Positions 1 through 24,994 of a stretch of 64,000 nt of DNA are shown here, in pieces. Both the position numbers and the translations under genes were made by a program. The stretch spans positions 22,692,001 through 22,756,000 of the forward strand of contig OZ336887.1 of NCBI GenBank assembly GCA_965287045.1, given 5' to 3'. The notes under the pieces are model-generated. The model had not been told where the DNA came from and made no database searches. It saw nothing but the letters and a program-made list of their open reading frames with translations. The first letter of the stretch is position 1, and the number at the start of each line of letters is the position of its first letter. This DNA comes from Carcharhinus amblyrhynchos (lineage: Eukaryota).

Positions 1-439
1 AAAGGCACGGTACAAATATACATTGTTTTGTAAGTTAAAACGCTCTTCTATAGTGACACTACTTAGCTGTAACATCAACTTGTTCTTGAAAACATACATG
101 CAGTGTAACAGTACAAACTGGCCTAAGTGGCACTGTATGTATTGTTTTAAAACCATTTGGATTTTAAAATCAATTACGCCAAAGAATATGACTGAATATT
201 GTCATATTCCATAGTGCACCATGCAGGGCTGAAGTATGTAGAACTGGAGACAAAAAAGATAGCAAACTACAAGAATATCCAGTGGAGAGAGAATTATATG
301 TATGCATGATGCACTGTTTTTACTCATTCTTCATTAGATTGGTGAAATTGCTCTAAATTCAAACAAACATTTGCACTACCCTGGTGTAATCCATGGGATC
401 AAGACAAAATACTGATAACAGCACAGTACTGTAGGAACA

Positions 440-1190: not shown

Positions 1191-1634
1191 GTCACATAGG
1201 ACGTAATTTGAGACAGTGTGTTAGGAATGTTTTATAATTTTAAGTTGGATTTATGTTTATATCTGTGTGTTAAGAAAGGTAAAAATTGTTTCAATTTCAT
1301 TTAGGTTTTGTTTACAAACCCTGGGAGTCTGAATAGACTTGTGACCAAAAGATTTTGGGTATTTTGGGTTTGTTTGTATACATACATCATAATGAGGTCT
1401 TACAAAAGCCTTAAGTTAAAGAGAAAGGGTTAAAAGTGGTTGAAATTTCAGTGATTCTGGTGGGGGAGGGAGCACAAAGCAGAAAGTTTTACTGTTGCCT
1501 AGCAACAGTATCAGCTGATAGACACAGAAAATGTAGCAGTTGAGAGGGGGTGGGGTTTAGAGTGCAAGTCAGAGAGAGAAGGCAGGAATTTTAAACTCGA
1601 GTAGGAAAACAAGAAATAGCAAGGGAAAATACTT

Positions 1635-4108: not shown

Positions 4109-4487
4109 GAAGCTACAAGGTGAGAGGGGTAGTGGGCAACTGAATATCAATTATAGGACTCTATAAAGTGATCAGTTTTGCAGAGGTGCCGCTGGAAGAC
4201 TGTGTTTCGGGAACTCATTTGTTTGCTGTGCAATTTATGAAACAGTGGGTTTAGAGTGCGGTTTTTGAGTGTCTTGAGAAGAGATGCAAGTTGGGTGAGT
4301 AGCATCAATTGAATGCTCACAAATTCATCTGAAGAAAATTGTTTGCAACTGCATCAGTTGCAAGCAAGAAACCATTGTGTCATGCTAGTGGTCTCCATGT
4401 CTGTAAAGATATTACTGGGATAAAGAAATAGTGGTAATTTTAACACCTCTGACTCTCATACTGCAACCTCCAGAGAACAATCCACCC

Positions 4488-4730
4488 CCCCAAACAGCAG
4501 AATCTGAAGAGAAAGAGACTTATTTCCTGGCAGATGTTAATTTCTAAATCCAGAGCAAGAGAGACAGAGAAAGCGATCTCTGTCTAAAGATCCCAAACAG
4601 CAGACTGTCAGACAAAGACCCACTTCCAAACAACAGCATATCAGGGAAAGAGACTTATTTCCTGCCAGATTACAGTCGCTAACTCCAGAGAGAAAGAGAG
4701 GTACTGCTGTCTAGCAACTCCAACCAGCAT
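4488..4730. repeat. Degenerate ~135-bp direct duplication
   Basis: GAAAGAGACTTATTTCCTG at 4511 and 4646; CCAAACAGCA-like submotif four times. Confidence 0.65.
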
Positions 4731-5089
4731 CTGACCTGATTTTTCTGTGCAAATCTAGATCCACTCAGTTACATGATCTGTCCCTGTCAATCATCCTAAT
4801 CAAGCACTACTCTGCAAAATCCCAGGAGGACACTAAAATGACAGAACAGCATTAGCACAGATTAAAACAAACATTCCAGCAATTATACTGCCATGCTGCA
4901 GTAACAATAGAGGATGCTGGTTATAGACCAGCAACTCTAATAATAAAAAAAAGCTGCTAAAACAAATTCTACGCAAGAAACATGACTAAAATACATTTCT
5001 TAAAGGCAACAATATCGTCACACTCCATAGTTTCTGGGGGAAAAAAGGATCTACCAAGCCAGATTTTACTCTGGGATCTGACGTGTCCG

Positions 5090-5345
5090 CTATTAACAAC
5101 AGCTGCAATTGTAACAATTGATAAAAGCTGCTGTCACAGTGTGACAAAAATGGAAAGCTAATTGGAGAGCTTCAAATATGGAGTTCTGGGCAAGAATTTG
5201 GGAAGCAACTTTGGAGAGAAAAGGAAGGTTGAAGATGTGGTGATACTTCTCAAGCATAGAGGGGTCAGGGTTTTTTTTAAACAAAGAAGAATAAGGTAAT
5301 AATACTAGATTTGAAGGCAAGGGGGATAGCAGCTGAGGAATCCAC
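5090..5345 (-). mobile_element. L2 LINE RT fragment
   Basis: KKNPDPSMLEKYHHIFNLPFLSKV resembles the L2/CR1 RT motif YRPISNLPFLSK. Confidence 0.65.
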
Positions 5346-5469
5346 AAACTACAGTTGCATCCATTTAGTAAGTGCCCTCCAGTTGAAGTCATATCGCCAA
5401 GTAAGAAATTTTGATCAACAAACCAATAATCTAGCATATCACATGCCATCATAATGAAACACCAGCAGA

Positions 5470-5727
5470 TGATTATTTATCCCACTTCTACCCTTTCACC
5501 TTGCATCATCATCCCTTTTGTTATTTAACCTCTCCTGCCTTCTAACATACCACATGTCTCCACTTTTGTTCTTTCCTCCCCTACAGCTGCCTCTGTACTT
5601 GCTTAAAACCTGCTAATTGTCTAATTTTTGTCAAATTGATGAAATGTCATTGATCTGAAAAGTTAACTCTTTCTCTTCTTACAAATGCTGCCTGATGTTG
5701 AGAACTTCCAGCATTTTCTGTTTTTAT
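5470..5727 (+). mobile_element. Penelope-type terminal repeat fragment
   Basis: TGATGAA..TGAAA..TGCTGCCTGA..TTCCAGCATTTTCTGTTTTTA; same family at ~18010, ~18570, ~36620, ~48380, ~57985. Confidence 0.55.
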
Positions 5728-5795
5728 AAATGCAGCAGAGCACTACTAACACCACGACAGTATTACATCAGACACTTTAATATTCATAAACTTAC

Positions 5796-5871
5796 TGGCA
5801 ACACAAGGAATACTCATCAATTCCAATAACACCTCGGGGAGGTGGACGGAACTTCCATCGACAATCATTTT
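5796..5871 (-). CDS. HELZ-like coding exon 6 (start of CCCH zinc-finger region)
   Basis: gtctttcag| 76 nt (E)NDCRWKFRPPPRGVIGIDEYSLCC |GTAAGT; HELZ has [25 protein letters not shown]. Later exons were not found in 1-5795. Confidence 0.92.
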
Positions 5872-5927
5872 CTGAAAGACAATTGGAAACATTACTTTTC
5901 TGTGTAAGGTCTTCAAAACATGCCTCA

Positions 5928-6392
5928 GGGAGGCAGTGGTGTAATCGCATTGTCACTGGACGAATAATTCAAAGACCCAGGGTAATGCTTAAACTTAGTT
6001 TAGGTTAGAGGGTCATTAGATTGGTTCCACTGATCGGCGCAACACTGAGGGCCGAAGGGCCTGTACTGCGCTGTAATGTTCTATGCTCTAGGGACCTGGG
6101 TCGAATCCTACCATGGCAGATGGTGAAATTTCAATTCAATAGAAATCTGGAATCGAAAGTCTAATGATAACCATGGAATCATTGTTAATTGTTGTAAAAA
6201 CCCATCTGGTTTACCACTGTCCTTTAGGAAAGGAAATCTGTTGTCATTAGCTGGTCTGGTCTACACGTGACTCCAGACCTGCAGCAATGTGATTGACTCT
6301 TAAATGCCCTCTGCATGCCACTCAGTTCAAGGGCAATTAGGCATGGGAAATAAATGCTGGCCTAGCCAGCAATGCCCATCTCCCATCAATGA
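5928..6392 (+). mobile_element. SacSINE1-like (tRNA-headed Deu-SINE), interrupted by a CR1 tail at ~5990-6085
   Basis: tRNA-like A/B boxes (TGGTGTAAT..GGTCGAATCC), core CCCATCTGGTT..TCCTTTAGGAAAGGAAATCTG, tail AATAAATGCTGGCCTAGCCAGC; the insert ends GGGCCGAAGGGCCTGTACTGCGCTGTAATGTTCTATG. Confidence 0.72.
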
Positions 6393-6499
6393 TATTTTGA
6401 TCCCGAGACCTGGTCCAGTGATTTCAATTAGTATCTAATGAATGTCAGCATCCAGGATTAAAAAACGTGCAGGAAGAAAAGTTCTAAGTTTCTTCGCAT

Positions 6500-8520
6500 C
6501 ACTTGAAGAAGCCACGGCCATGATTCTCCCATCGTGACTTGCAATTTTTCTGGTGGGTTGGATGGGAACGCGCGTCGCTAGTCCTGGGATTTGTGCATCA
6601 CATCTCCCAGAGCCAGTGAACAGTCGCTGGTCAGACCACACCAGGAACTGGCAGGAAGGCAGGTAAATAATTTGAATCTGTTTTTAATATGTTTTAAATG
6701 TAGTTTGAATGTAATTATCGGACCTTACCTGTTCCGATTGAATCTCCCACCCCACCAGAAGTCTGACTGACAGAGATATAGTTTATCCACATGGTGCCAT
6801 TGGGTTTCAGCCATTTTGAAACATGGGCCGCAATTCTGGCAGGATTCAGACTAGCTCCTCACATTCGGAGAACTAGTGGGAGACTCCACCAGAGTGAAGG
6901 GAGGGCAAATGGGGCCCCCCAGGGGGATGGGTGGTAGCCCCTGACATGGGCACCCTGGCAGTGCCAGCCTGTGCCCCCTGGCACTGCCCATGTCTAGGTG
7001 CTCCTTGGCACTGCCCACTAGGCATCGAGGAGTGCCAAGAGGGCAATCAGTGGGGATCCCACTGCCACTCTGTATTAGGGTCGGTCTGGGATGGAGGAAG
7101 GCCAGTGATTGGGGCGGGCCAGGATGAGGGATTGCCACTGCAGGGAGGGGAGGGTGGGTGGTCTGGACATCAGGGTACTCTGGGGCGGGAGAGGCTGGAG
7201 GGGCAGTGCTGCAGTGGTTCCGGGCTGGCCAGTTATCAGGCAGGTCAACAAATGTGGAGTCTGACGGATCAGGACCATTGCGCATGAGCAGAGTTCCAGA
7301 ACTGTCAGACTCCGGCGCGAAGAGGCCCTGCAACCCACCCCCCCAACCCCGAGTTTTTAATGAGATTCATGATCGAGACGTCTGCAGCGCACAGAGTGGG
7401 GAGATTCAGATGAGAAGCTGAACTAACAAAACAGTCGGGATCTAGAACAGTTTTCCTGCTATTTCAACATTTTTGGGAGAATGGCGGCCCATGTTTCAAA
7501 ATGGCTGAAACCCAATGGCACCATGTGGATAAACCATCTTTATATCTCTGTCAGTCAGACTGAGGAAGATGTAAAGGCTCGTCACACCATCGATGGATGA
7601 GGTGAGAGGTGAAAAATCAGGTTTGTGCCCAGTTTCCCGCCTCCAGATTTTTGGTGTGCTGATTTTAATATTTAAATCAATTTAAATGCTAATTTTAAAA
7701 TTAGTGAACCTGGGATGCAACTGTCTGAGCTCACTTGCCTTAACTTCCTCACTAGTGGAGGTCCTCAATGGCGAGGATCATGCGTGGACTCAACATGCTT
7801 GTAGGACAGGAGGCCACTGAGGACCCCTCATGCGGTCGGGGCAGGGGAGGCTGTGCAGTTTGCAACTGGCAATTGGTAGGGGCAGGGTGGGCTATGCAAT
7901 TTGCAATCGATGATTGACCTGGCTGGGGGAGGGGAGAATCATCATCTGGGCCAGGGCGGCACGGTAGCACAGTGGTTAGCGCTGTTGCTTCACAGCTCCA
8001 GGGTCCTGGGTTCAATTCCCCACTCAGGTCACTGTCTGTGTGGAGTTTGCACATTCTCCTTGTGTCTGCGTGGGTTTCCTCCGGGTACTCCGGTTTCCTC
8101 CCACAGTCCAAAGATGTGCGGGTTAGGTTGATTGGCCATGTTAAGAAATTGACCCTTATTGTGCAGCGATGTATAGGTTAGAGAGATTAGTGGGTATAAT
8201 ATGTAGGGATATGGGGGTAGGGCCTGGGTGGGATTGTGTTCGGTGCAGACTCGATGGGCCGAAGGGCCTCTTTCTGCAATGTAGGATTCTATGGTTCTAT
8301 GGTGGGAGAACAGAGAGATCTGTGCATGCACAACTGTGCCCTCTAGTGTGAACAGTCAACTTGGGGCTGAGCCTAAGGCCCCACCCCCTGCCTGTACCGA
8401 TGGGAATCAGGCTTCATTTCCTGCACTAAGTGCCATAAATTTTTTTTGCAGCCTCACCAAAAAAAAATCCTGTTTTCAATTCATTTGGCACTTAGAATTC
8501 TTTTGGTAAGATCACTGCCA
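6500..8520. mobile_element. Cluster of GC-rich non-autonomous DNA-transposon (MITE-like) pieces
   Basis: GC-rich block bounded by GGGCCGCAATTCT (6825) and AGAATGGCGGCCC (7478-7490) inverted termini, flanked by similar remnants; no credible protein. Confidence 0.55.
7954..8301 (+). mobile_element. HE1-type V-SINE, full length
   Basis: tRNA head GGGCGGCACGGTAGCACAGTGGTTAGC..GGTTCAATTCC, V-domain TGTGTGGAGTTTGCACATTCTCC..GGGTTTCCTCCGGGTACTCCGGTTTCCTCCCACA, CR1-derived tail TTCTATGG repeats. Confidence 0.92.
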
Positions 8521-9501
8521 AACTTTGTCCCCTCTCATATTTTTCATTCTTCACAAAAGAGTTAAGTCATCGATTAGCTTATTAGTTCAGTTATTAAGAT
8601 CAGTTGCATCACCACCCTCCTGCCATCAAAAATATAGGGAAGAATATATTACTTATTTCCTTTCAAAAGAGATTTTTAAGATACGAGGCTGCAATTTCAA
8701 CAACAATTTTCAAAAGGGAATTGAATGTGCACTTACAAAGAAAACATTTTGGGACCTACGAGGCTTAATGGAGAGCTCTTTCAAAGAGTCAATGTGGGAA
8801 AGCTGCACCATTGTATTCTATTCTCCAATGTAAAATATGCAGCATAGTCACAGTACTATTCTTCACATCAACTCTCAAAAGTCTCACAAGAGCAATGAAA
8901 ATCCGTTCTTCCTCTTTCATCCTTGCTCTCAAATGAACCATCAATTTAAAACTCATGTCATATCACAACATGAATTGCTGCTCAACAAGCTACACCATAC
9001 TCCAATTTTTAAGTAAAAAGACCAAACGTCAAAAATTGTTTTTTCAAACTTGAATTCACTAAAAACTAGGAAGCATATGATCTGACTAAAGACAGCTCCT
9101 GCTGCACCACATGCGTGGGAGGTGGTGCAATATGCATGCACGCCCAGATTAGAAATATATTTTAGAAATGCAATGGGGAAATTCAATGGAACATTCTCAG
9201 TCTTTTGATGATTCCTCCTCAATAAAGAAGCTTGTAAACAGGCCTGCTGGAGTCCAAGAATGCTTCCACAAAATATGCCCCTCCCTAATTCCAGTACCCC
9301 TTCGTTCTTAGGACCACTGTACTGCATTGTTCAACCCTGTATTGTTCAGAGTTCCTTAATCTCAAACCAGCATAATATACCCAGACACCGGAATCGCCTT
9401 CTTCAAAATTCCAGGTCCTAGGTCTCCTTTGCTAATGATTTCAGGTGCACCCCTACCCACAGACCCTTACCTCTTGTACTCCTAGACCACAAGAACCATC
9501 A

Positions 9502-9619
9502 ATCTAGTAGGGATGAAACCATGATTAAATAGGTGGTTCGCCCGTGCAAGGGTGACACCATAATCAGGCAGGGGACAAGGCTAGCCCATTGCACTTGGGG
9601 TGTGCCGATGTCTCCGATT
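9502..9619 (+). pseudogene. U1 snRNA-derived sequence (two overlapping partial 5' copies)
   Basis: ATCTAGTAGGGATGAAACCATGATTAAATAGGTGGTT and GCAAGGGTGACACCATAATCAGGCAGG..GGACAAGGCTAGCCCATTGCACTTGGGGTGTGCCGA..CGATT align to U1 ACCTGGCAGGGGAGATACCATGATCACGAAGGTGGTT...GGGCGAGGCTTATCCATTGCACTCCGGATGTGCTGACCCCTGCGATT; no Sm site or 3' stem. Confidence 0.75.
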
Positions 9620-9707
9620 GTGGTTTGCCTAAGCTAAGGTAGAGTGAAGGATCAGGGTAGCCAATGAAGTTAAACAGAGGCTTTATCTAATGCAGTTTTT
9701 CAAAGCC

Positions 9708-9742
9708 ATCATCTCGACCTTTTGGCTAAGGTGAAGCGCTAG
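9708..9742 (+). pseudogene. U2 snRNA 5'-end-derived sequence
   Basis: TCTCGACCTTTTGGCTAAGGTGAAGCGCTAG versus U2 TCTCGGCCTTTTGGCTAAGATCAAGTGTAG. Confidence 0.7.
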
Positions 9743-10412
9743 ATCAAACTTGGGAAGGAGTGCAATGACTCATCCTGTCAGCTTGGACCTTGTTTGATCA
9801 AGCCAAGATGAGATGTCTTGTCAGCTTGGATCTGGTTTGTCCCTCTTGTGGGGAACATGATTGTATTTAATTTGAATTGGCTTTTTTGATTAGAAATAAA
9901 ATACCAAAAGCTACAAAAAAAATCCACCAATCACTGCAACCAGACCTTAAAAACCCATATCAAAGTACCACTACATCTGAGATCCATTTCCCACTCATCT
10001 CAGATCCCAGGGCCACCCCCGGTGTTGATAGGTTAGTATCCCTGAAAATATGTAGCATGTTCCAATAACTCACTAAGTTTTGCTCTAAAGGGGTCCTTAT
10101 GCATACTAGTTTCCAGTTCTGTTGAAGAGTCCAAGCATCACCATAGTTTTTTTTTAAATATAGATTCTACCTATGTACCAAAAAACAATGAATATTAAAA
10201 TTGTGATTTATTAACCATTGCCTAAAGCCACCTCTAGCTAAGCTGCTCAAACACCCAATGAGATGCAATCCCAGTGAAGTTTGCACAACTTTCTCCTATC
10301 AGGGAGGCATATCAAAAAAGTTCTGTCAGTATTAGAGGTGACATTTTTGTTTTTTTTAGAAAAGTATCATTTCTTGCAAGAATGTATTTAGCTTTACAAT
10401 GTCAGCACACAC

Positions 10413-10458
10413 CTTTGGCATCATGCTCTGATGAAAAGAGAGCACCATTAGTTGCAGC
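10413..10458 (-). CDS. HELZ-like coding exon 5
   Basis: ttctttttgtttaagcag| 46 nt AATNGALFSSEHDAK(E) |GTGTGT; phase 0 to phase 1 links exons 4 and 6; weak similarity to HELZ TATSNALSGYHVEDLDEG. Confidence 0.72.
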
Positions 10459-11359
10459 CTGCTTAAACAAAAAGAAAATTTGCATAATTAAAATATTTAG
10501 GTATCTGTTAATCTTCTGCATCACTGTTTACAAATGTAATTACGTATCTGCAACACATTTAACAACAGAATTGTGCAAACCACTATACATGAGTCACATA
10601 ACTATGCTCTCCCTCTGAACTGTTTTGACCCATTTTAACAAGAAAGATAATGTATCTGGGTTCTATCTAGAACTAGAAATGCAGTTTACAATTTATTTAT
10701 ACTGTTCTGTGAAAGTGTAGATCATTCACAGTTAACAGCATGCACAGTAAAGCTTTAAACATTTTAAGGTGTACATTAATTATGAGGGGACAGCAGACTT
10801 CTCTTTTGCAACAACAGCCAGACTACTTCCATTTGTTATACATGTAAGGAATGGATAAGGGTAATCACTTTTAGGGACTCAGCCAAAAGGAATCTTTGAT
10901 AATAAAGCAATAAACAGGATTATTAAAACTACTAATAATGACACTACAATAACGGTGTTCAAATTCTCAACTTTTGTGCCTTAAATTGATCTAGCCTAGA
11001 TCATCATTGGTGTTTACCGTTTGTATGGATCCTAATCAAGAGGGTAGTTTCCCAGTAGACATGAATCCATGTGCAAAATAGAATCAGTTAGTACAGCATT
11101 CTCATCCAGTTTCTTGATTAAACAAACAAACATATCACACTGTCATAGCTGTGCTATTCTCAGAGATTGGTGATAAGGCATATTGCTGGTGATAGCAGCA
11201 GGAACTTAACCCTAACACATCAGATATTCTGGATCAAATGAACTAATGCAGTTTACCCAAACTCCCACCTTCCCAAAATGCACAAAGCACTTATCTGCTC
11301 CTGCAAAATTATGTTTCCCTACAAACAAGTTCTTTAATTATAGATAATTAAGCTCTCAC

Positions 11360-11416
11360 CTGCGACTCCGTCAGCAAGTGCAGCAGCCGTCTCAGATGAC
11401 TTAAGGAGGCTCCATT
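11360..11416 (-). CDS. HELZ-like coding exon 4
   Basis: gcttccag| 57 nt NGASLSHLRRLLHLLTESQ |GTGAGA; HELZ has NGMVTKDLTRLKTLLSETE. Confidence 0.88.
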
Positions 11417-11513
11417 CTGGAAGCATAAAGCGACATGTGCTTTGTGCGCTATGAATTCTACTGAAATTGCATTAATTAAAAAACCAATTTCAATTGCCAA
11501 AATGCTGACCTAC

Positions 11514-11638
11514 CATACAATCTTCAGTCTTACAATCGCACAAAGCATCATAAACATCCTTCAGTTTTCCCTCTAGAACCAGTGATGCCAACACATCTCT
11601 TAACAGGTTTTCCCCCAGAATTTCATGGAAGCATAAAA
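11514..11638 (-). CDS. HELZ-like coding exon 3
   Basis: ttcccaag| 125 nt LCFHEILGENLLRDVLASLVLEGKLKDVYDALCDCKTEDCM |GTAGGT; aligns without gaps to HELZ [41 protein letters not shown]. Confidence 0.88.
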
Positions 11639-11822
11639 CTTGGGAACAGAACAGTTAATTAACATGTGATAAGTATATCGATCGTCAAAAGCCATACTAA
11701 GCATATATATGATGTTTTTTCAATATTAAAACTTTTAAAGAGCAATTCCTAAGAAACCTCAACTGGATTCATCATATTATACTTAAATATATAATTGATG
11801 CAAGCCGTTTTATACAACTTAC

Positions 11823-11859
11823 CACTTTTACAATCTTCTTCGGCCTCTTTGTAATTCTT
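11823..11859 (-). CDS. HELZ-like coding exon 2
   Basis: ctctacag| 37 nt KNYKEAEEDCKS(V) |GTAAGT; HELZ has KNYVQADEDCRHV. Confidence 0.9.
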
Positions 11860-13289
11860 CTGTAGAGAAATACAGAAGTGTTTACATTTATTCATTCATT
11901 CATTGAGGTGCCAAAATACTTAGAATAACTAAATTTAATACTCCTATTTTTCTGAGCAATATCTATCACATAACATACAATTTAAAAAGAGTAAAAATTT
12001 AGATTGGTTGGTATTCACCTGACATATATTATGCACTACATTTAATTATTCATCTCTCATCTGCACCCCTATAAAGACCGAAAGAACGTCTAGATCTGTA
12101 CCTCAAGCCGTGCCAATGATCTCTGATGAACGCAGCAAATATACATTTAAAATTAAAAATGTATTTGTCAAAGCTTATTTTAAATGTATGCCAGCTATTT
12201 TCACTGTCAAAATTTACAAAGGGTGTCAGTGTTCATCAGCTCTCTCAATGAAAGCATGTCAGGATGAAGCAACTTTGTAACAAAAGCTTACGTTGTACTA
12301 TTTATGAAAGAAATTCTTGATTGAACTAAAAGGGATTGCTGGCACATTATAGCATTGAAGTCTCAAGCTGCAAAAACGTGAAGGTGCTCTCTGTGAAATG
12401 TTTCCAACATTTTAGATACACTAATGTTGTGTGCGAAAATACGTCTTGCACGTTCGCTTTTGTAAATTAACTTGACACAACTAAAGTGAAGGAATAATTT
12501 TAGGCCACAATAGTCTGGCTCCCAATGTGCTTTTCTCTGTTTTTCAAGATATAGGCAAAGTAGTCAAAACCAACATAGATTCTAAAATAGACCATGATTA
12601 TTAAATAGGGTAATTCACAAGGTAAATCTAACATTAAGTTGAGAAATACCAAAATACATTTATAGCATTCAATCAGCACCAATGGAATGGAACAATATAG
12701 AAAAAGTGCATTTATTTAAAAGTTGTTACCACGTCCTGGACTAAACAGACCAGTTTTTAAAACATCTCTTTTTCAACCATGTTAGAAACCTAATCACATT
12801 AAATTGAGTCACTAAGCCCTCCATATGTTTGCCTCTCTCGCTCTCACACATTCAAAAGAACATCTGGACCATCTTCACCCAGCCACAGGCAAAACCGGGA
12901 ATTAATTCCTAATGGCATTCTTCATAGATTTTTAAAACTCTATTTTAACTTCTATTAGCTTGGCTGATTGTTACCACAATCAATACCTCCATTAATAATG
13001 GAAAATACAGCTGTGTGACTTACTATGTTAGTTGCAAGTGTACCTGTAACTAATACTTTCAAAGCCAACTGAAAGTTCATCTTCTCTCAAAATCTTAGAC
13101 TAATTTCTACAAGCTGAGCAAAAATCAAGTTAGTCATATAAAAACCTTTCATGAATAACTTGTATCTTTTTCATTTTTATTCTAAGTCAGCCCTGTATCA
13201 AACCATAATTTCTTGTTTTTTTAATATCTCCCCTTCCCACCTGCTTTTTCCTTAATTTTTTTTAAGCAGAGTAACTGTTTCACTTAAGC

Positions 13290-13655
13290 AGTTATGTTAC
13301 TGGGCTAGTACTCTAGTAACCTAAAGCAATAATTCAGAGAAAGTGAGCCCAATTCCTACCAGGGCAGCTTGACAAAATAAAAGTTGAAATACAATGTTGA
13401 TACCAGTAGAAGTGACCACAAATTACTGTCAGATTGCCATAAAAGCCCTAATGGCTCACTAATGTACTTTATGGATGGAAACCAACCACCCAGTCAGACC
13501 TATATCTGATTAGCTCCCACACCAGTGTGATTGATTCCTCACTGCCCCAAAATGGCATTTTGTTGTACAAAACCTCTATCAACTTTTTAAGACAGACTAT
13601 CACCTTCTCAAGGCAACTGGAGATGGACAATAAATGCTAGTGATGTCCTTATTCC
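13290..13655 (+). mobile_element. Diverged SacSINE1-like copy
   Basis: Collinear similarity to 5928-6392 (GTTACTGGGCTAGTA..CTCACTAATGT..GATGGACAATAAATGCT). Confidence 0.55.
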
Positions 13656-14310
13656 AACACTGACTGGCATGTCCTGCAACGTATCTCCAGTGCCTCCAGG
13701 ATACGGTCTCCAAACTAACATATATCCATCACAAACATTTCTCCACATTCAATCATCCTCCTGCTCTTTAAACCTTGCAGCTTGGCAAGAATCCAATAAA
13801 TTTAGGAAAACACTAACCTTACCCCTGCAATTAAGCTAACTGTATGTACAAATGATATTTAACCAGGTTGCAAATCTTGTTTAGTACATCTATTACAGTT
13901 ATATTCACTGACAGACAATATTGTGAAGACATTTTTGTACACTTGGAGATAGCCATTGTTTTCCTGAAAACTGCCTCCCAATCTCACCCCTTCACATCAT
14001 GTACAGAACATTTTTAGTCTTCCGTTCACAAAGTGAATAAATACAATACCTTCTTAGCTCTTGGAAAGCACTGTATATTGGATCCATTGAGCTTTATAAG
14101 AAAGAACATTATATCCTACATTAAATCCGGTACTTTTTAAACGAGCACAGGGAATGTTATTTCCCAAGTGTCAGCGACCCATCAGTAACACATCATTAGT
14201 CCAGGATAAGTCATGTATTGAGTAAATGTATGATTCAGCTTCTTTTCAGCTCAGATCCAAGTTTTCCTGAACTTCCAAGCAACTTAAACTGTAAATTTTT
14301 TTTATGTTTG

Positions 14311-14672
14311 TTTATTTTATTAGTGTCACAAGTAAGCTTACGTTGACGCTGTAATGAAGTTACTGTGAAAATCCCCTAGTCACCACATTCTGTTCAGATA
14401 CGTGGAGGGAGAATTTAGCATGGCCAACCGATCTAACCAGCACATCATCTGAACTGAGAGAGGAATTTCGCACTAAGTTCATTGCAGTCTTAATGTAAGC
14501 CTTACTTGTGACGAATAAATAAAAGTTAACTTAACCAGAGCTCCCGGAGGAAACCCATGCAGACATGGGGAGAACATGCAAACTCTACACAGACAGTCAC
14601 CCAAGCCAGGAATCAAACCCAGATCCCTGGCGCTGAGGCATCAGTGCTAACCACAGTGCCACCATGCCACCC
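14311..14672 (-). mobile_element. HE1-related V-SINE with internal inverted tail copy
   Basis: Reverse-strand tRNA head and V-domain; tail ..CTTGTGACACTAATAAA; second tail in + orientation at ~14470-14527. Confidence 0.85.
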
Positions 14673-15667
14673 CGTTGTCAATTATATGGAGGTTTGTTCC
14701 TACTGCTTGAGATTCCTAGAACACGAGCTTCCAAACTGTTACTTTTATCCAAGTACAAAAAAGTCATTCAAACCCTCATTGAAAAAAAAGTGCTTAAGTT
14801 CCCAAATACCAAAAGACTGGGTAGCAAGGTCACATAGCCAATGAAAGGCTGCCCATGGTCCTTCATCCACAATATTTTGAAATGTTAGGATTGGATCTTC
14901 CTATGTTTATGAATGTATCATGGTGCTCCTTTTTGCAGACAATATTGTTATTACAAGACTCACCTGGGGCCCAGAGCACTCTATCCAGAATGTTAATCAG
15001 TTAAGCTATGAAATATGGTAGTGGGTCACATCAACAATAGCTCCACTTCGTAAGCCAAAGAGGGATCTTAACAGGACTTAAGATATATGTATTACTGATC
15101 TGTGTAGTCGTTCAGGACCCTGGCTATGCTAACTTGACCAATTCTTCAGGGCCCTACAGAGATGGTCTTTCTTCAGGACTAGCCACTTCCTACTCCTAAA
15201 CAAGCACGTGGTGTGGGAGACTAGTCTGAAACACCTCTTCAAAGCCTCCTGGTCTCTGCCTGGTTCAAGATTCAGAACCAAGCAATGAGATGATTTTGTG
15301 GCCTATAATAACTGGTTTCTGTTTATTCTGGAAGCAGCTTCAACCCAGATGCACTTCTCCAGGAAAATTGGAAGATGGGTAGATCATTTAGCCGTTCATG
15401 CCTATTCTGCCATTCAATGAGATTGTAGCTGATCTGTTACATAATTCTATATACCCCTTTAGCCCCATATTCCTTTATCACCAATTCAAGACGAGCATAA
15501 TTAAGCTGTCAGAGATAAGCAAGACTGCTAAACGGTACAGTGGTTGACAAAACACAATATCCTATTGTAGGTCATTCCACCACAACAAAGGCAATTTCTG
15601 TTGGGAAAACCAAGGTGACTACTACTGCAAGATTTTTACTTGGAGAGCACAAATGGGAGCATGTCAA

Positions 15668-17330
15668 CAGTGGTCTCCAAATAGTTGGCCGAGGTCGACA
15701 GGTCGAGCCTGGAGTCTTGAAAAATTGATCTTCATTTGCTGCCGAAAATGCACAAGACTTGAGCTTCTTGTGATAACAAGCAAATCAGCCCATTGACTGC
15801 TGAATGTCAAAAATGGCGGAACTTGGGCTTCATATAATGATGACCGAATCAGATCATTGATTTCCATACCACACCAAAAATGCGTCGAACTCAGTCTTCT
15901 TGTGATGAACTAATCAAGTCATCGACTGCCAAACTGCACCAAAAATGCAGGAACTAGAGATGATGGGCAAGTCAGCTTATTGACTGCCAAACCATGTAGA
16001 ATTTTCTCATGATGACAAGCAAATCAGCTCAACTGTCAAATTGCAGGTGTCAAATGTGGACTAAGCTGGATGTAAACAAAATGATGAGCGAGGAACCAGT
16101 AACCTCCAAGAGGGCAAAAACCTATCATTTCCACTAGGAATGGAAAGTTTTTTTTCCCATGAATGTCAAAGGCAAGACCATATGTCAATCGAGTATAGCC
16201 TTAAGTAGAGGTAATTTTGGAATGGCATCACAAGACAATTCATGCAAAATTTCTAGAGAATTTCCCTTTAAACAGCACTATTTGGACAAAGAAAGTTGGG
16301 GAGTTAAAGGAAGTGTTGCAAGCTCAACTGTCATTCTTTTCAAAACCTTTGGCTAAAGGCAAGGCAAGGCAAGCAAAAAGACACCTTTTCACATGAGCCA
16401 AGCGTTGTTAAAATGCAAGTTGTTGTTCAGGGATGGTGAAGTTATCAAGGGGGCTACGATGGTTGTTGCTGACATCTTGTTCAAAGACTTCAAAAACAAA
16501 AATGAAATTATGACAGCTATTAAAAGCATGATGCTTGCTGCTTCAACAGTAGCCAGAAAGTTGGAATTGTTGTTAGAGGATGTCGCAGCAAATACATCAA
16601 GAATTATCAGGCTGTGAATGTTTCTCACTACAGTTTGATGAGTCAGTAGACATGATGGACACAGCCAGATCATTGTTTTCATTCACGTGGCATTCAAAGA
16701 TGCAACAACAATGGAGGACTTCCTCACTTTTTTGCCAAAGGGAGGACAAGAGGTGAGGATGCCTACAAAGAATCTAGAAAGGTATGTGACTGAGAAAAAA
16801 CATTAAAACATTCTGATCAGGAAACTGGTTTCAATCAAACTGGTAGCGCACTGTCAATGCTATGTGTCAACGCAGGCTTTGTTGCACTTCACAAAAATGA
16901 TCTTGAATTCCCCTCCTTTGTCAATTATCACTATGTATCCACCAACAAGTGCTAGTAAGGTTATTGAATTTTCTCATGTAATGACAGTCATCGTCAAGAT
17001 CCCTGAAATTGTCACCTTCCTTAAATCAAGAAATAAGGTGTACAGGAAGCTGACAGGTGACGTGTGGGTTGCTCATCCTGGCATTTCTCAGGGATGCAAG
17101 TATAAAATTGAATGAGCTAAACAGTGAACTGCAGGAGAGGGACAGAGACTTGAATATATTCACTGCACTGATCAAGTATGACAAGTTGAAACTGAGCCTG
17201 TGCTCCTCCCAGATATGGAACAAAATTATTGAGCACTTCTCAAATCTGGAGAAAATCAAACAACAGATCAAACAGAAAAGGTCTCATCTTGAAAGGCAAA
17301 ATTCTTCTTGTGAAAAGGAAGATGTATAAA
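15668..17330 (+). mobile_element. Decayed hAT (Charlie/GTF2IRD2-like) DNA transposon
   Basis: TIR-like CAGTGGTCTCCAAA at 15668; broken transposase frames SEEPVTSKRAKTYHFH, FRDGEVIK..LFKDFKNKNEIMTAIKSMMLAASTVARK, LAFLRDASIKLNELNSELQ. Confidence 0.8.
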
Positions 17331-18011
17331 AAAAGATTTCTTATAGCTGAAGATTACTTACTCGGTGATAGAAGTTTAGGAATAATTAATCCAATACAAG
17401 AAGCCCGCAAGTCTGCGTTACTCCAGCACATTGTCAATAAGTGGTCAATTTGTCTGCCTTGGTAATGAGCTATAAAGAATGGACCAAACACTGGAGGCTG
17501 GAATTTTTCAAAATTTGATTAAGAAAACCCAACTTTCTGCCAGGTATGGCAATCCTAGTTGAAAAAGCAGTAATTCTAGCCCCAGCGAAACATAATCTTC
17601 ATTAACCCTTGGCTCTATCAATCTGCATCTCAAGAACATCGATATAGCACCTTTCGTATTTTCAGGACATCCAATGAGTATAAATACAACAGCCAATCCC
17701 ACCAAGATAAGGGACCAGATCATTCATTTTAGGATGTTAGTGGAGGGATTAAATGCTAATTGGCATACAAAAACATCCCCATATTTCAAATAGTGCTGAG
17801 GAATATTTTACATCCACTAGTGAGGATGTAATAAACACAATTTGTTTCTTTCTCACTCCTTTGCAGTATTCTGACTGGAAGTACAATTTGAGTAGTGTAT
17901 GAAAGGATCTTAGCCAAAACAGTGCTTGTTTCTGTTCCCTCCCATTTGAACTGACAGATATTGACAAAATGTGAAGAAAAACCCACTATAATGAGTCCAA
18001 CAAAATGGATT

Positions 18012-18662
18012 CAAATAAAAGCAAAACACTGAAAATGCTGGAAATCTGAAATAAAAATTAGGTGCTGAAAAGTTTGGCAAATCTGGCAGCATCTGTGGGG
18101 AGAGAAACAGACACCGACTCTAATATGACTCGAGCTCCAAAGAATCATATTCGTCTAGACACACTAAAATGATTCAAGGTTGGTTTTCCTGCTGACGGTG
18201 CAGCTGGTGCAGAAAATTAGAACTGTAGATGTCCTGTTTAATTCCACACAAAATTACTCTCTGCAACAAACACTAAAACAAAGAATGTTTGTTTAACATT
18301 TTGCTTAAAGAAAATCTACTCCGAAACTATTTTCTGAAGGAAAACGTGACCAGATACCTGCTCTCAACTGGAGAAAGGCATGGTTCCTCAACTTTTTCTT
18401 TGCAGAGAAATGTGAAACAGGCAGGTTCCTTTCACACGAAACAAAATTTTTAGAAATAGTCACTTTTCAGAGACAGCAACAGAAAGAGCTTCCAGTCACT
18501 ATTCTATCATGGTTAGTTACAGTTTCTCTTAATTCAACTGCAACTCAAATTGTCATACAGGAAACGTCGACTGTCTCCCTCAGCAGATGCTGCTGCCAGA
18601 TCTGAGTTTTTCCTGCATTTTCTGTTTTTATTTCAGATTTCCAGAATCAGCAGTACTTTGCA
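18012..18662. repeat. Inverted pair of Penelope-type termini (~18012-18110 and ~18566-18662)
   Basis: TGCTGGAAATCTGAAATAAAA..TCTGGCAGCATCTG versus CAGATGCTGC..CCAGA..TTTTATTTCAGATTTCCAG; mirrored pseudo-ORFs in the track. Confidence 0.75.
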
Positions 18663-19004
18663 GAATAGCAATGTGTAAAACATTTTGCAAAAAAACAGAA
18701 TTTGTGGGCTCACCTGAAAGTGCAAAATCTTTAAATAAGTCTGGATTTGTCATGCCTGTGTCAAGAACGCAAGTGTAAGACAACAATGGATATGTATTTT
18801 TTTTAAAAAATGGATATGGACAATTCATCTCGACCCAAAATGGAGCCAGTCATGTGATTTTTGTAATTTTTACGCAAAGAACAAGTTCATGTCTCTGTAA
18901 AGTCATTAAAATGTAAATGTCCACGGATAATGTGCTCCTCCCTTGAAGAGGCATTCTAGATTAAAACCACTTATGGTTTTAGCTTTTTTTCATTATCTAA
19001 TGGG

Positions 19005-19340
19005 CAGTGGGCACTCGTGGCAAGGCCACTATTTGTTGCCTATCCCTAATTACCCTTGAACTGAGTGGCTAGCTAGGCCACTTCAGAGGCTTTTTGAGAG
19101 TTAAACCATAATACTGGTGGTCTGCAGTCACACATGGGCCAGACCAGGTAAGGATGGAAGATTGCATACCTAAAAGGGCATTAGTGAACCAGATGGGTTT
19201 TTACAACAATTGATGAGTTATTAATTGAATTTAAATTCCACCAGCTGCCATGTTGGGGTTCAGACCAGTCTCCCTCAAATACTAGCCTGGGCCTCTGGAT
19301 TACTGGTCCAGCAACAATATCATTACACCAACATCTGCCC
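19005..19340 (-). mobile_element. SacSINE1-like copy
   Basis: Reverse complement of the 5928-6392 family (CCCTAATTACCCTTGAACTGAGTGG, CATTAGTGAACCAGATGGG). Confidence 0.72.
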
Positions 19341-19494
19341 CAATTCTATTTACTGAAACTCAAATTCAATGGATCCCTCCCCCCACCCCAGCTCAATGTC
19401 AACTAGCTTGAAAACTAACAGAGACTGGGGAGAAGCCAGTTTATTACAATCAAGTGCAAAAAACCACCAGTCACACCACTGTCCCCCTGCCACT

Positions 19495-20187
19495 GTGTGG
19501 TAAAGGCCTCTATCATCATTTCATCTATGTCGATAACAGATGTATTGATCATGTGGTCACATGAACAAAACATACTAGAGATAACGCACCTCATTAGTCC
19601 AAGGACCAGTTAGAGGCAAGTCAGTTTATAGACCAACAGGACGCAAGAGGGACCAACTTCTTACAAAAAGACAGAACCCCACTTAACAACCAGTCAACAG
19701 AGGCAGTGAGAAAGGTGTTAATTTGTTGACACCTGAAACAAAAGTTGTTCACTTTTTTTCTAAAGAAGCTTGGATGAAACTTTATCTAAAAGACCTGGAG
19801 ATTTCCAACCTCACATTCAAAGAGCCACAAGACCCTACCTCCAGCCCTTTTGACAAGTTTATCCTAAAGGACCAATTCAAGCACGTAATCGGTTTCCTTG
19901 TTATTCCCTTATCAATCTAAGTGCACCCATCATCTGTAAAACCCATCTTTTCTTGGATGTCTTGGTCTTTGTGTGAGAGAGTGAATGTTTTAACGCACTT
20001 ACGTTGTGTGAATAAATGTTTATCTAGTCTTTTAACTTCAACTTACCAGAAAGTCAGTTTCATGTTTTATCCTTTAAAGTCACAACACTCAAAGGGATTT
20101 ATAAAGCTCCCTAAAAATATACATCTTGTTTTGGACAACCAAGAGGTGAGGGAAAAGGTTGTCCCACACCTCTCCTCATCCATAACA
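19495..20187 (+). mobile_element. Possible solo LTR
   Basis: Ends ..CATAACA, has internal AATAAA (20011) after a GT-rich tract; the 5' boundary and TSD are unresolved. Confidence 0.3.
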
Positions 20188-20235
20188 GCATTGAAAAACA
20201 TACACAACAGATGGTTGATTTGGAATTACAAATGG

Positions 20236-20767
20236 TAGTTGAAGATATTTTGGCCTTGGAGGGAGTGCAGAGGAGGTTTACTAGGCTGATACCGGAGTTG
20301 AGGGGGTTGAGCTATGAGGAGAGGCTGAATAAACTAGGCTTGTACTCGTTAGAGTTTAGAAGAATGAGGGGAGATCTCATTGAGACATATATGATGATGA
20401 ATGGGATGGATAGGATAGAGGTGGAGAGACTCTTCCTGCTCAAAAAAGACAGTAGGACTAGGGGGCACAGCCTCAAGATAAAGGGGGGGCGGTTTAGAAC
20501 GGAGTTGAGGAGGAACTTCTTCACTCAAAGGGTGGTGAATCTCTGGAATTCTCTGCCCGTTGAAGTGGTGGAGGCTGCCTCGCTAAATATTTTTAAGACG
20601 CGGGTTGATGGGTTTTTGATAAGAGAGGGGATTAAGGGTTATGGGGAGAGGGCGGGAAAGTGGAACTGAGCCACGACAGATCAGCCATGATCTTACTGAA
20701 TGGTGGGGCAGGCTCGAAGGGCTAGATGGCCTACTCCTGCTCCTATTTCTTATGTTCTTATGTTCTA
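20236..20767 (+). mobile_element. Young 5'-truncated CR1 LINE
   Basis: Uninterrupted ORF2 C-terminus (DILALEGVQRRFTRLIPELRG..FFTQRVVNLWNSLP..GYGERAGKWN), 3'UTR and TTCTTATG tandem tail. Confidence 0.95.
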
Positions 20768-21736
20768 ACTGAACAATGTCTCTCAAACTAAAGTGAAACT
20801 CAAGCAATTTAGCAAATTTAAAGATATAATCAGTGTCAGACAGCTATATACAGCCTATAATTTTTACTAAATAAAATATACTTGCACCTCCTCAGGTGTC
20901 CTGGCTCATGTAGGGAAGACATGACTGCCAAACAATTCACTGTCAACTAGTTGAATATGCATTGAATAACACGAGTAATATAACACTCCATTTAATTCAT
21001 GCAAAACACTGGAAAAATATATACACAACATCACACACTAGCTGTATTTCTACAAAACAGAGGAAAGCAAGATACTAGTCAGATACCTGCACACTGGGAA
21101 ATGAATAGACATGAAATTGTATTGTTTTCAAATATTCAAATGGATAGAGGTGTGTATAATAAACAGGAGGCAAAGTCAGAATTACTACTAGGAGATTAAA
21201 CACAGAGAGAGGAACTAAAATAAACTTAAAAAGTTATGAACTTGTTACCCTGCCGTAACTATTGAGATAGTGACACATACATTGTTTAAAAAGGAATGAG
21301 CAATAATTAAAAAAGGAGAAAATACAAGTTTTATGCAAGGAAAAGGCCGAGGAATGTAACGAGAACTGACAATTCCAGTTGATGGCACAGGTGTGAGATC
21401 AAACTGCCTTCTTGTGGGTTCCAGTTTTTAGGTTTCCATGAACAGACTGCCAGAATGAAATTTTCTACTTCCAACATTTACAAATAGAATTCTTTCCATA
21501 TGATTCAACTGGGACTAGCCAGACAATGGAAATGAAATTTTCTCATCATTCCTTGGATCAACAAAATAAGTGATCAAAGAACAGGACACCAACCCATTGT
21601 TATGAAGTGCAACATAGCATTATTTCATGATGGGAGAAAACAGCAGGGGGAGTGAATAAGGGATTAATGGAGGTAGAGTTTACAGAAAATGAAAAATGCA
21701 CAGAATAAAGTAGCTACAGAAGAAGGTGGTAGCCAT

Positions 21737-22287
21737 GATGTGGAGATGCTGGCGTTGGACTGGGGAAGGCACAGTAAGAAGTCTCACAACGCCAGTTTAA
21801 AGTTTATTTGGGAGCACAAGCTTTTGGAGCTCTGTCTCTTCATCAGGTGAGTGGTTCACAAACAGGGCACATATAGACACAGAATCAATTACAAGAGAAT
21901 GGTTGGAATGCACTCTTAACAGGTAATCAAGTCTTTACAGGTGCAGACAACGCGAGTGGAGAGAGGGATCTTGGGTTCATGTCACAGTATCTGTAACCCC
22001 CCACAACTTGCCTGGCCTTGCAAAATCTTACTAACTGTCCTGGCTGGTCAATTCATACCTCCTTAACCTGTGTTTAACCCTCTGTCCACTCGCATTGTCT
22101 GCGCCTGTAAAGACTAGGTTACCTGTTAAGACTCGCATTCCAACCATTCTCTTGTAATTGAGCGTGTATCTATACACTCTGTTTGTGAACCCAATTCGCC
22201 ACTCACCAGATGAAAGGGCAGCGCTCTGAAAGCTCGTGCTACCAAATAAACCTGTTGACTTTAATATGGTGTTGTGAGACTTCTTAC
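21737..22287. mobile_element. Penelope-like element with inverted pseudo-LTRs
   Basis: Arms ~21774-21967 and ~22078-22287 are reverse complements; each has a degenerate CTGATGA..GAAA core. Confidence 0.78.
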
Positions 22288-24679
22288 AATGAGGAGGAGG
22301 AGGAGGAGGAAGCCGCCATCAAAAACGGCACCTGCTAAACAGAAGCTGCAACCTCAAATCATCATCTTGCAATGAACCAGATTAACTTCCTGAAAAGCAT
22401 TTCTGCAGATTACTATTCATGTGGTCAAGAATACTTACACATATTACTTTATTTTATAAAAACATGTTCATTGAACTATTATACACGGTGCATAAGATGA
22501 AATGAATCACAACAAAATGACATGCAGAAATAAATGTGACAAATAGTATTTTTGAAAATCAAATTTATTAACAAAATTAAAAAACAAAGGAAAATGAATT
22601 TGATTGTGCTAAATAATCTTACACCACAATCTGCACAATTCACAATAAAAGCTCAGTTCGTAACAAGCATGCCAGTATTTTCCTACGATTATGTTCTAAC
22701 AGCACAGTTTCAGTGTATAAATCTATTTTACCTTCTGTAGTTACAAAAAGAAATGCTACGAGAACTCACATAACTTCTCCATTTCTTGATGCAAAGTAAG
22801 ACTTGTTCATTTACACGTACCAAGATGAATTGAAATCGCCATGGATTTCAGTTATTGAAATGTAAGCTTCAACAGAATGGAATAGACCAAATACATATCC
22901 ATCAAAATGACGGATTTAAATCAAGCACTATGTTTTAAGTCATTTGGTAGTACAGAACTTTAATATAGCTGAAAGGGCAGATACGTTGCAGAAGTTTTTC
23001 ATCTTGCATTCATCAGAACAAACACAAGAATGCCAAATTTCAAACAATCACAACAATTCTACAGCAGAAGAGACAAGTCTATTCTGATTCTCAAGTAACA
23101 AGAAAACTATAGAATCCCCATGCTTCTGGGTAATTTAAAAAATATATTTAAATTGTTGCGTTTTGAAAATGTGTCCAAAATGGGAATTTATCTTTATTTT
23201 AAAAGCTGGCTGTCTCTCTTCAGTAAGGATCAAAATCAAAGACAGGAGACTGATAGCTGCATGCAATGAATCAGTGTCCTCTATTCAAAAGCTACTTAAC
23301 TAAAGGGGTATTTGATAGCTAACATATATAGGGCCATTTTCAGTTTTCTATCCAACAATAAAATAAGCAGACTTATGCTGTGACCAAAAAAAAACATATT
23401 TAATTTGTTTCATACTCGGTACAGCCCAAATATTGAATTTTACCCATATTTATGATGCCGACTGTGTTAAGCTTTACATAATAGTCTCATGCATTCTGTT
23501 TTTGCTCTTAAGTGTTTGTCGCTTTGTCTTCAAAACAAGTACAATCTTGGTCTATTTTTCAATGTTCCTCGATTCTGTCCTTAATAGTAATGAACTTCAT
23601 GGACATTTGAAGCTCATACATTCAATTTGTAACATAAAAGGAAATAGAAGACAGAAAACTAATCATTTCGTAAAGTAATTGTTACCAGCAGAGATTGCAA
23701 GGAACTGTTTGTTTTGGAATGTGGCAAATTAATTGATTCTACTTCTCCATGGTGTATTGCAATAAATAGTATCTGGTCTATTTGGCATTTTTGTTGGTAG
23801 ATAAATCTTGACTTTTTTTGTAGGCAGTCATCTGTTGGTGTTGCTTTTTCCACCTTTTCAGGTGACAACAGAACATGACGGTCATCTCACATATTCTCCA
23901 GCAAGCTATTCATCATGAGTCAAAACATGGCTGTATTAATTCTCATGTGGCAAATAATAAACATGTTTTGGCTCAGAAGACAGCAAGCTGACTGAAGGAA
24001 ACAGTAGTTTAATCTAAACACAAGAAGCCATTCAGAAGAAATCCAAAATTGTTAGTGCGGTTTCAAATTTCATTCCCTCCAGTTGTGCTAACATTTAACA
24101 TTCCATTGTTGATTTTGGTAGGTTAATCAAAGCATACCCAAATGTAGACATGATTCTCTCTCTGTAATAAAGGTCTTAAACCAAGGGCCATTTTTCCACT
24201 CCCCCTACTCCTCCTCCCACTGCCCACCACCCCTCCTACCTGATTTTCCAGATTTCCAATGTAGTATCTCAATACAGTGCATTCCCTTGATTCACTGCTG
24301 AATTTAGAAAACGTAAATGAGTAACTGAAAAGTCATTGGGAACAACTTCCTCACAGCACCCAAGTTATCTTCATCTTTCATTTTGTTTTATTGTGGCTGG
24401 ATGAACTTGCGCCATGGAACAGAAACTATTCAACCTAGAGTTGGAAATCCATAAAAGGTTGTTCCTTAGAGACATAACTTTTGTCCTTTTGAACCTCAAT
24501 TTATACATTTCTTTAGAAATAAAATGGAAAATAATTGAACCCGTTGTTCTGTTTGCGTCTGTACCGCTCAAGTGTATCAACAAAAAAATGATTCCTTGAT
24601 AAACACAACTGACATTTTTAAGTGCTGTGAAACCTTTTGAATCAAGACATAAATATTGTGGTTAAAATCAAGTATTTAC

Positions 24680-24868
24680 CAGCCGTATGAGGCATAAGAT
24701 TCTGTATAGTAATTCCTGAAGTCTAATAGCCTCGACTGATGCAGTAGAACTATCAGTATAGCTGGTTACACTCAGCCCTTCCTTGCAGTTATACGTCTGC
24801 TTGCACTTCCGCTGCCAGGCCTGCTGGTATGCTTGGTCACAAGACTCTCCAGGCCTTCTTTCAGCCAT
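24680..24868 (-). CDS. HELZ-like gene, first coding exon (exon spans 24680-24883)
   Basis: MAERRPGESCDQAYQQ...RLQELLYRILCLIRL resembles HELZ MEDRRAEKSCEQACES...KIESLLYRIASFLQL; acceptor ttgcag| 15 nt before ATG, donor CTG|GTAAAT. Confidence 0.88.
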
Positions 24869-24994
24869 GTTTCAGACCACAACCTGCAATAAATAGTTAC
24901 AAATTAATTGAAGAAACGTTTGTCCGATTGCTTTATACTAGTTTAAAAACAAGTCCTCTCTCATCTTTGCACTGTATCCAGGGGTACTTATTAA

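Follow-up and report, generated by a model that had tools for sequence, protein, structure and literature searches.

The 64,000-nucleotide window analysed here (G000:C18:22692001-22756000; contig OZ336887.1 of Carcharhinus amblyrhynchos) carries on its minus strand the first six coding exons of a second HELZ-type helicase gene, hereafter the paralogue, which lies head-to-head with RBBP6. The gene is intact and several of its helicase motifs are changed, and its product is, as judged from the sequence, probably an RNA-binding scaffold in which the ATPase is dead or very slow. A preliminary description of the window had proposed six minus-strand exons with GT-AG sites and a stop-free N-terminus of 176 residues. 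Splicing at those coordinates returned an identical peptide without stops, with an AG ahead of all five internal exons and a GT behind all six. The parts of the gene are as follows (nt, nucleotides).

24869..24883, minus strand: untranslated part of the first coding exon, 15 nt between the AG acceptor and the ATG
24680..24868, minus strand: coding exon 1, 189 nt, ATG at 24868, 63 codons, 86% identical to shark database proteins
11823..11859, minus strand: coding exon 2, 37 nt, equal in length to the HELZ exon
11514..11638, minus strand: coding exon 3, 125 nt, equal in length to the HELZ exon
11360..11416, minus strand: coding exon 4, 57 nt, equal in length to the HELZ exon
10413..10461, minus strand: coding exon 5, of 49 nt, or of 46 nt with the inner acceptor at 10458
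5796..5871, minus strand: coding exon 6, 76 nt, with the conserved WKFRPPPRG block and the first CCCH cysteine (codon from 5803)
1..5795 (the part in the window), minus strand: intron 6, 5,899 nt in full, crossing the left window edge
G000:C18:22691896-22353841, minus strand, outside the window: coding exons 7-28, with the rest of the CCCH finger, stalk/1B, both RecA domains, PAM2 and the tail

The first coding exon begins at 24883, and because its AG acceptor lies 15 nt 5' of the ATG, at least one non-coding exon is implied upstream; the canonical HELZ gene of the same genome has a like arrangement, with an AG 18 nt ahead of the ATG. Exon 1 as the sole query retrieved three shark proteins with 86% identity (E about 1e-26), all recorded as 'probable helicase with zinc finger domain', and exons 2-8 are identical in length to those of the canonical HELZ gene of this genome (37, 125, 57, 49, 76, 199 and 108 nt). 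The database match of exon 1 and the exon lengths shared with HELZ together exclude a chance origin of the six exons. At exon 5 the 46- and 49-nt forms of the tandem acceptor are both represented among database proteins.

The complete gene comprises 28 coding exons (5,322 nt, 1,773 residues) over a span of 363,028 nt, in a model for which 87 kb of the region, all inside introns, was left out of the DNA covered. Its introns are 26 of the GT-AG and one of the GC-AG type, and no stop, frameshift or broken splice site was found in the 28 exons. The CCCH, helicase and PAM2 exons that had been expected to the left of the window are thus present and intact, and a pseudogene is ruled out. The GC-AG intron is intron 11, at G000:C18:22681929, the HELZ counterpart of which is GT-AG. 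The encoded protein is 98.7% identical to P0015 (Mustelus asterias by source), 75.5% to the chimaera protein P0020 and 54.0% to the sturgeon protein P0022.

A genome search with one shark protein, run with a stricter initial filter than two later short searches, gave 28 matches, of which 21 lie on C18, five on C21 and two on C16. The two short searches for HELZ copies recovered C21, C18, a HELZ2-like locus on C16 and one weak match on C19, and revealed no further HELZ-type copy in this genome apart from the latter. The C19 match (G000:C19:25978235-25978366) resembles the HELZ exon of motif VI with an E value of 0.002, and probably belongs to some other superfamily 1 (SF1) helicase.

The canonical HELZ gene on C21 has 30 exons and encodes 1,914 residues, with an identity of 97.6% to catshark HELZ and of 73.8% to bat HELZ. 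For the C18 protein the identity is 46.6% to C21 HELZ and 45.2% to bat HELZ; over the first approximately 180 residues the C18 protein matches bat HELZ in 67 of 190 columns, as compared with 118 of 188 for the HELZ of this genome. The two genes nevertheless share an architecture; the preliminary description had matched the six exons to the N-terminus and exon layout of HELZ. Both encode, in the same order, an N-terminal helical region, a CCCH finger, stalk/1B, two RecA domains, PAM2 and a low-complexity tail with common short motifs and a similar C-terminal end, and the phases of all 27 C18 introns agree with those of the nearest HELZ introns, in 20 cases with an offset of at most one alignment column. 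Two exons of the HELZ tail, with lengths of 52 and 185 nt, are missing from the shark paralogue; they would fall between C18 positions 22491131 and 22443810; the sturgeon paralogue retains sequence that aligns to this segment.

A further relative, HELZ2 (PRIC285), combines an RNB nuclease domain with two helicase domains. Its SF1 helicase domain is related to that of the paralogue (38-40% identity in matched stretches), but the HELZ2-like locus of this genome is a separate one on C16, whose exons are long and whose GTGKT and DEAAQ motifs are intact, and Pfam scans of the paralogue detected neither an RNB domain nor a second helicase domain. The paralogue is therefore not HELZ2, in line with the initial proposal.

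The helicase core was compared at 14 positions taken from the SF1 motifs. All 14 residues are invariant in 29/29 reference proteins (24 HELZ and five invertebrate proteins), whereas every one of 20 near-full-length paralogues departs from them at four to eight positions, two partial records having been left out. In this genome, the asparagine of motif Ia is replaced by D693, the Walker B sequence DEAAQ reads DDASR (E to D788, as read from the DNA of exon 16, and Q to R791), the QG of motif V reads QD (G to D978), and the alanine of motif VI is I1030. The Walker A motif is GPSGTGKT at residue 661, and its lysine is present in 20/20 paralogues.

The set of changed residues varies across lineages. 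Walker B reads DD in 10/10 cartilaginous fish and in two mormyrids, and DE in 3/3 sturgeons and paddlefish and 5/7 teleosts. Motif V reads QD or QN in all ten cartilaginous fish, and its glutamine is lost in all seven teleosts. The asparagine of motif Ia is an acidic residue in every near-full-length paralogue that has the position (19/19). The arginine finger is lost in 5/7 teleosts, and eels have neither the arginine finger nor the glutamine of motif V; sturgeons keep DE, but within DEASY, and carry STVLPR. Different residues have thus been lost in different lineages.

As a control for divergence, 38 HELZ- and HELZ2-type proteins with 39-74% core identity were scored in the same manner: 32 have no change, four have one and two have two, and the Walker B glutamate is present in all 38. 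By contrast, the 11 paralogues with 44-63% core identity all have four to eight changes. Because equally diverged HELZ- and HELZ2-type proteins show zero to two changes, the motif changes of the paralogue, on this sequence comparison, exceed plain divergence.

The fold of the core appears to be retained. Domain scans identify AAA_11 and AAA_12 in the paralogue, and in four cartilaginous fish 179/230 and 183/225 positions of the two RecA domains are invariant (362/455 over the core). For the chimaera paralogue P0021, a UPF1-like fold is predicted (predicted local distance difference test score 72, predicted template-modelling score 0.59), with an E value of 1.6e-25 and best matches to UPF1 and Sen1. 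Among solved structures UPF1, of the SF1B group, matches best both by sequence (E 1.4e-15) and by predicted fold; its DESTQ and QGRE correspond to DDASR and QD(K/R)P in the shark paralogue. The term helicase, used for this gene at the outset, is doubtful, since the catalytic motifs are changed.

The regions outside the core have been preserved. A CCCH finger of the form C-x8-C-x5-C-x3-H occupies residues 176-195, ahead of the helicase core; its four ligands are present in all 20 paralogue rows that cover the finger, and its Pfam score in P0015, 20.1 bits, falls just short of the 20.5 cut-off. After the core, at residue 1093, lies a PAM2 motif with ten residues identical to HELZ, the core of which is found in 22/22 paralogue rows. 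PAM2 and poly(A)-binding protein form a textbook binding pair. Short motifs of the tail are common to the paralogue and HELZ, and partly to amphioxus; PAM2, the CCCH finger and the tail motifs are retained from sharks to eels.

Three further features of these regions were observed. The CCCH finger of cartilaginous fish and sturgeons has F-A-H at its end, an aromatic residue taking the place of the serine of vertebrate HELZ. An aromatic at such a site resembles RNA-stacking CCCH fingers, and could confer a different RNA recognition. The Brienomyrus paralogue P0174 has seven tandem copies of PAM2, compared with one in the Paramormyrops protein, either from an exon expansion or as an artefact of the gene model. 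Amphioxus HELZ (P0167) has TPR repeats at its N-terminus (residues 45-119); a Pfam scan of three vertebrate HELZ-type proteins gave no TPR match, and the vertebrate N-terminal region encoded by exons 1-3 of the window may be a degenerate TPR domain.

The known activities of HELZ provide a frame for these changes. Human HELZ, unlike the paralogue, is a demonstrated RNA:DNA helicase, which unwinds RNA:DNA hybrids, depends on the Walker A lysine to remove R-loops, and has a motor-dependent role that covers R-loop removal and repair; the ATPase-dead variant K674N retains binding to RNA:DNA substrates (PMC13396810, PMC13396364). HELZ's C-terminal half by itself binds NOT1/NOT3 and PABPC1, and tethered HELZ drives mRNA decay, within a role in decay and repression of mRNA that depends on the tail (PMC6769256). 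In UPF1, mutation of the motif II DE blocks the hydrolysis of ATP but not its binding (PMC5196439).

For a paralogue that is mainly a scaffold, the following mode of action may be envisaged. The protein would probably still bind nucleotide and RNA, with inefficient ATP hydrolysis or translocation. It would dock on mRNA by way of its zinc finger and helicase fold, use PAM2 to bind poly(A)-binding protein, and perhaps recruit CCR4-NOT through the tail motifs common with HELZ. The two copies could then divide the labour, with a motor-independent cytoplasmic role in translation and mRNA decay for the C18 copy and the motor-dependent R-loop role for the C21 copy. More broadly, we consider the chances about evenly balanced that the paralogue represents an undescribed vertebrate SF1 pseudo-helicase. 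After a genome doubling the two jobs of HELZ would have been split: one copy would have retained the motor for R-loop unwinding, and the paralogue would have shed catalysis by lineage-specific substitutions in sharks, sturgeons, eels and mormyrids and persisted purely as a CCCH/PAM2/CCR4-NOT adaptor for mRNA over more than 400 million years, before an apparent loss in tetrapods and most teleosts.

A precedent is Utp25, a pseudohelicase that likewise retains the helicase fold with motifs that are dispensable or changed (PMC9539457). Utp25 differs in being a DEAD-box-like superfamily 2 protein that has been tested by mutation, whereas the paralogue is an SF1 protein that stands beside an active sister copy and is known from sequence only. 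The few pseudo-helicases on record would thereby be joined by an SF1 protein. Ohnologues that were lost elsewhere and retained in sharks are a familiar genre, and the decay of the motifs sets the paralogue apart from it. A sister gene with a likely lost motor and a retained finger, PAM2 and tail motifs would separate the two roles of HELZ, and the conserved tail motifs point to candidate residues for CCR4-NOT binding.

Several observations weigh against a loss of catalysis or against the proposed scaffold. The 14 motif positions were chosen after the first alignment had been seen. In this genome, motif positions are changed at 12/47, compared with 33/148 for other ancestrally invariant core positions (p 0.69); across all 20 paralogues there is a weak excess at motif positions (33/47 versus 79/148, p 0.044). 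The Walker A lysine and threonine, the first aspartate of Walker B, the glutamine of motif III and the arginine finger are retained in sharks, and the arginine of motif IV in 9/10; in this genome the motif III glutamine, the motif IV arginine and the arginine finger are all present. The Walker B exchange of glutamate for aspartate is conservative and fixed in 10/10 cartilaginous fish, and the literature search gave no paper that tests E-to-D at this site. DE and QG are both retained in 3/3 sturgeons and paddlefish, and isoleucine or valine at the motif VI alanine also occurs in two HELZ2-type proteins. The PAM2 motif scores 17.3 bits in Pfam, under the cut-off of 20. That the paralogue keeps the CCR4-NOT sites of HELZ is a guess, the residues being unmapped in the accessible portion of PMC6769256. 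Finally, RNA data queried with a two-exon stretch listed no match. From another lineage, an assembled contig of 1,255 nt encodes 350 residues that match the end of the sturgeon paralogue at 96% identity; this hints at a spliced transcript, only if the sturgeon has the last three introns of the shark.

The main rival, which we regard as unlikely yet deserving of weight, assumes the same origin and a still-active, retuned helicase or ATPase in which the fixed changes rearrange the active site; a new motif V aspartate beside a shortened Walker B acid would be an example. It draws on the residues kept in all ten cartilaginous fish (Walker A, motif III glutamine and arginine finger) and on the nearly invariable motif IV arginine, on changes that are nearly fixed, on the constraint on the RecA domains and on the DE and QG of sturgeons. 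It is countered by the Walker B glutamate, which all 38 equally or more diverged relatives retain, and by the eels, in which the arginine finger is lost together with the glutamine of motif V; sets of losses that differ by lineage fit relaxed selection on catalysis.

A protein that stays bound to RNA in the ATP state, as a clamp that inhibits or competes with canonical HELZ on shared RNAs or partners, is improbable. Such a clamp would agree with a retained Walker A motif next to changed hydrolysis residues, and with the binding of RNA:DNA by the ATPase-dead K674N variant of HELZ (PMC13396810, PMC13396364). The acidic residue of motif Ia in 19/19 paralogues would more likely weaken the grip on RNA, as judged from UPF1 contacts.

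It is still harder to credit that the paralogue is a redundant duplicate with no distinct job, under steadily relaxing selection and heading for loss. The branch lengths do lean that way, with a stem of 0.42 for the paralogue versus 0.12 for HELZ, a shark-chimaera path of 0.19 versus 0.048 (evolution about four times faster) and very long teleost branches, and many lineages have no paralogue among the matches listed. Set against this are a frame that is intact over 363 kb, the identity of 75.5% between shark and chimaera, and the PAM2, CCCH and tail motifs that persist from sharks to eels.

The origin of the paralogue was analysed with trees of 37 rows (a quick tree, 14 of 51 rows being left out as partial or redundant) and of 13 rows (a careful tree under LG+G4, no mixture model). 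The paralogues form one clade that is sister to all jawed-vertebrate HELZ proteins, with the amphioxus, hemichordate and echinoderm proteins outside. On the 13 rows, approximately unbiased (AU) tests reject three alternatives: an origin by duplication inside the cartilaginous fish (p 3e-26), a split that predates amphioxus (p 2e-5) and a placement of the paralogues among the HELZ proteins of fish (p 2e-5). The paralogue and HELZ separated after the divergence of amphioxus and before the jawed-vertebrate crown.

The genomic neighbourhoods correspond. To the left of the paralogue on C18 lie a CACNG gene at 22.29-22.34 Mb and two PKC C-terminal exons at 22.25 and 22.27 Mb, as predicted in the preliminary description, which had placed the gene in a PRKCB-CACNG3-RBBP6 block. 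The first PKC exon is best matched by PKC-beta-II (100 bits, versus 70 for alpha), and we take the two exons to be the two alternative ends of PRKCB. Exon 1 of the CACNG gene is best to gamma-3; its last exon by itself is too close to separate (gamma-3 253 versus gamma-2 257 bits), and another CACNG gene, on C35, is best to gamma-2. On C21 the order is PKC-alpha, a CACNG4-like gene (a label we assume from its position and sequence features), CACNG1 and then HELZ on the minus strand. The blocks PRKCB-CACNG3-paralogue-RBBP6 on C18 and PRKCA-CACNG4-CACNG1-HELZ on C21 therefore run in parallel; in each, the HELZ-type gene comes after a PKC gene and one or more CACNG genes and lies on the strand opposite to theirs. 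CACNG5, CACNG8 and PSMD12 were looked for in this genome and not located; an exon on the small contig C954 is presumably of a PKC-gamma-like gene. To our knowledge, the human PRKCB-CACNG3-RBBP6 block contains no HELZ-like gene.

That the paralogue is itself the HELZ orthologue was rejected: it falls in a separate clade in three trees, the AU tests argue against it, and the place beside PRKCA-CACNG4-CACNG1 is held by the conserved C21 gene, as would have been expected from the paralogy claimed initially. The paralogue is likely a second HELZ copy from an early vertebrate genome doubling, that is, an ohnologue. The initial assignment to the two rounds of doubling (2R) holds to this extent, with the first round tentatively favoured over the second. 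The last exons of the CACNG genes are 73.8% identical between C18 and C35, 59.2% between C18 and C21 and 61.1% between C35 and C21; because the C18 gene has its nearer relative on C35 and not on C21, the C18/C21 split may well reflect the first doubling, a dating by one gene with no lamprey or hagfish sequence among the matches. The older of the two doublings corresponds to the '1-2' split of PMC7269912, the accessible portion of which gives no chromosome assignments for the PKC-CACNG-HELZ block. The alternative that a local segment was duplicated in the vertebrate stem can be all but set aside: the block support comprises three gene families only and lamprey or hagfish sequence was not identified among the matches, but order and orientation are the same on two different contigs of more than 50 Mb each, a third CACNG copy lies on C35, and the timing falls between amphioxus and the jawed-vertebrate crown.

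Records of the paralogue were found for at least 27 fish species: 12 sharks, one chimaera, five sturgeons and paddlefish, bowfin, five eel-group fish and three bonytongues. For six of the 27 the sole basis of assignment was membership of a 90% cluster, and for Synaphobranchus it was the score together with the motif alignment. With a paralogue profile, 16 of the best 120 of 246 matches score 1,865-3,270 bits (several top-scoring rows being members of the profile), and canonical HELZ proteins reach at most 1,733. Retention in cartilaginous fish, as first suggested, thus holds for sharks and chimaera but extends beyond them, to sturgeons, paddlefish, bowfin, eels and bonytongues. The paralogue matches listed include no ray, bichir, gar, zebrafish-type teleost, lobe-finned fish or tetrapod, which, with cluster memberships partly listed (15/20 members in one cluster, for example), suggests absence from these groups. 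For rays and skates no paralogue record is among the matches listed despite many ray HELZ records, and a loss in rays is possible.

The gene had initially been called hidden. Databases do hold predicted records of it, but public annotations carry these under the product name of HELZ itself or as hypothetical, so that at least 27 fish species have a HELZ-named or unnamed record that belongs to a different gene. The literature search found no paper that recognises a second HELZ-type gene. PMC13396810 gives SETX, AQR, DNA2 and UPF1 as HELZ paralogues, and in the ohnologue database paper PMC13450315 HELZ, CACNG3 and RBBP6 are without a match in one supplement, although its gene tables may include the pair. 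The paralogue is a real gene and a likely ohnologue that has apparently gone undescribed so far.

The remaining features of the window concern its right half and the introns.

39347..39512, plus strand: first coding exon of RBBP6, encoding the DWNN domain (PF08783, E 9.7e-20), with a GT donor after the exon
37751..38500, no strand: CpG-rich stretch between the paralogue and RBBP6, CpG observed/expected 1.09 and 0.95 (500-nt windows at 37751 and 38001), GC 0.48-0.55

The RBBP6 ATG at 39347 lies 14.5 kb from that of the paralogue on the opposite strand, which bears out the head-to-head arrangement noted before. The CpG-rich stretch is probably the promoter of RBBP6, and might be shared with the paralogue. 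Fragments on the plus strand at 20115-20669, 63090-63599, 3603-3965 and 58399-58815, all intronic, resemble the ends of long interspersed nuclear element (LINE) reverse transcriptases.

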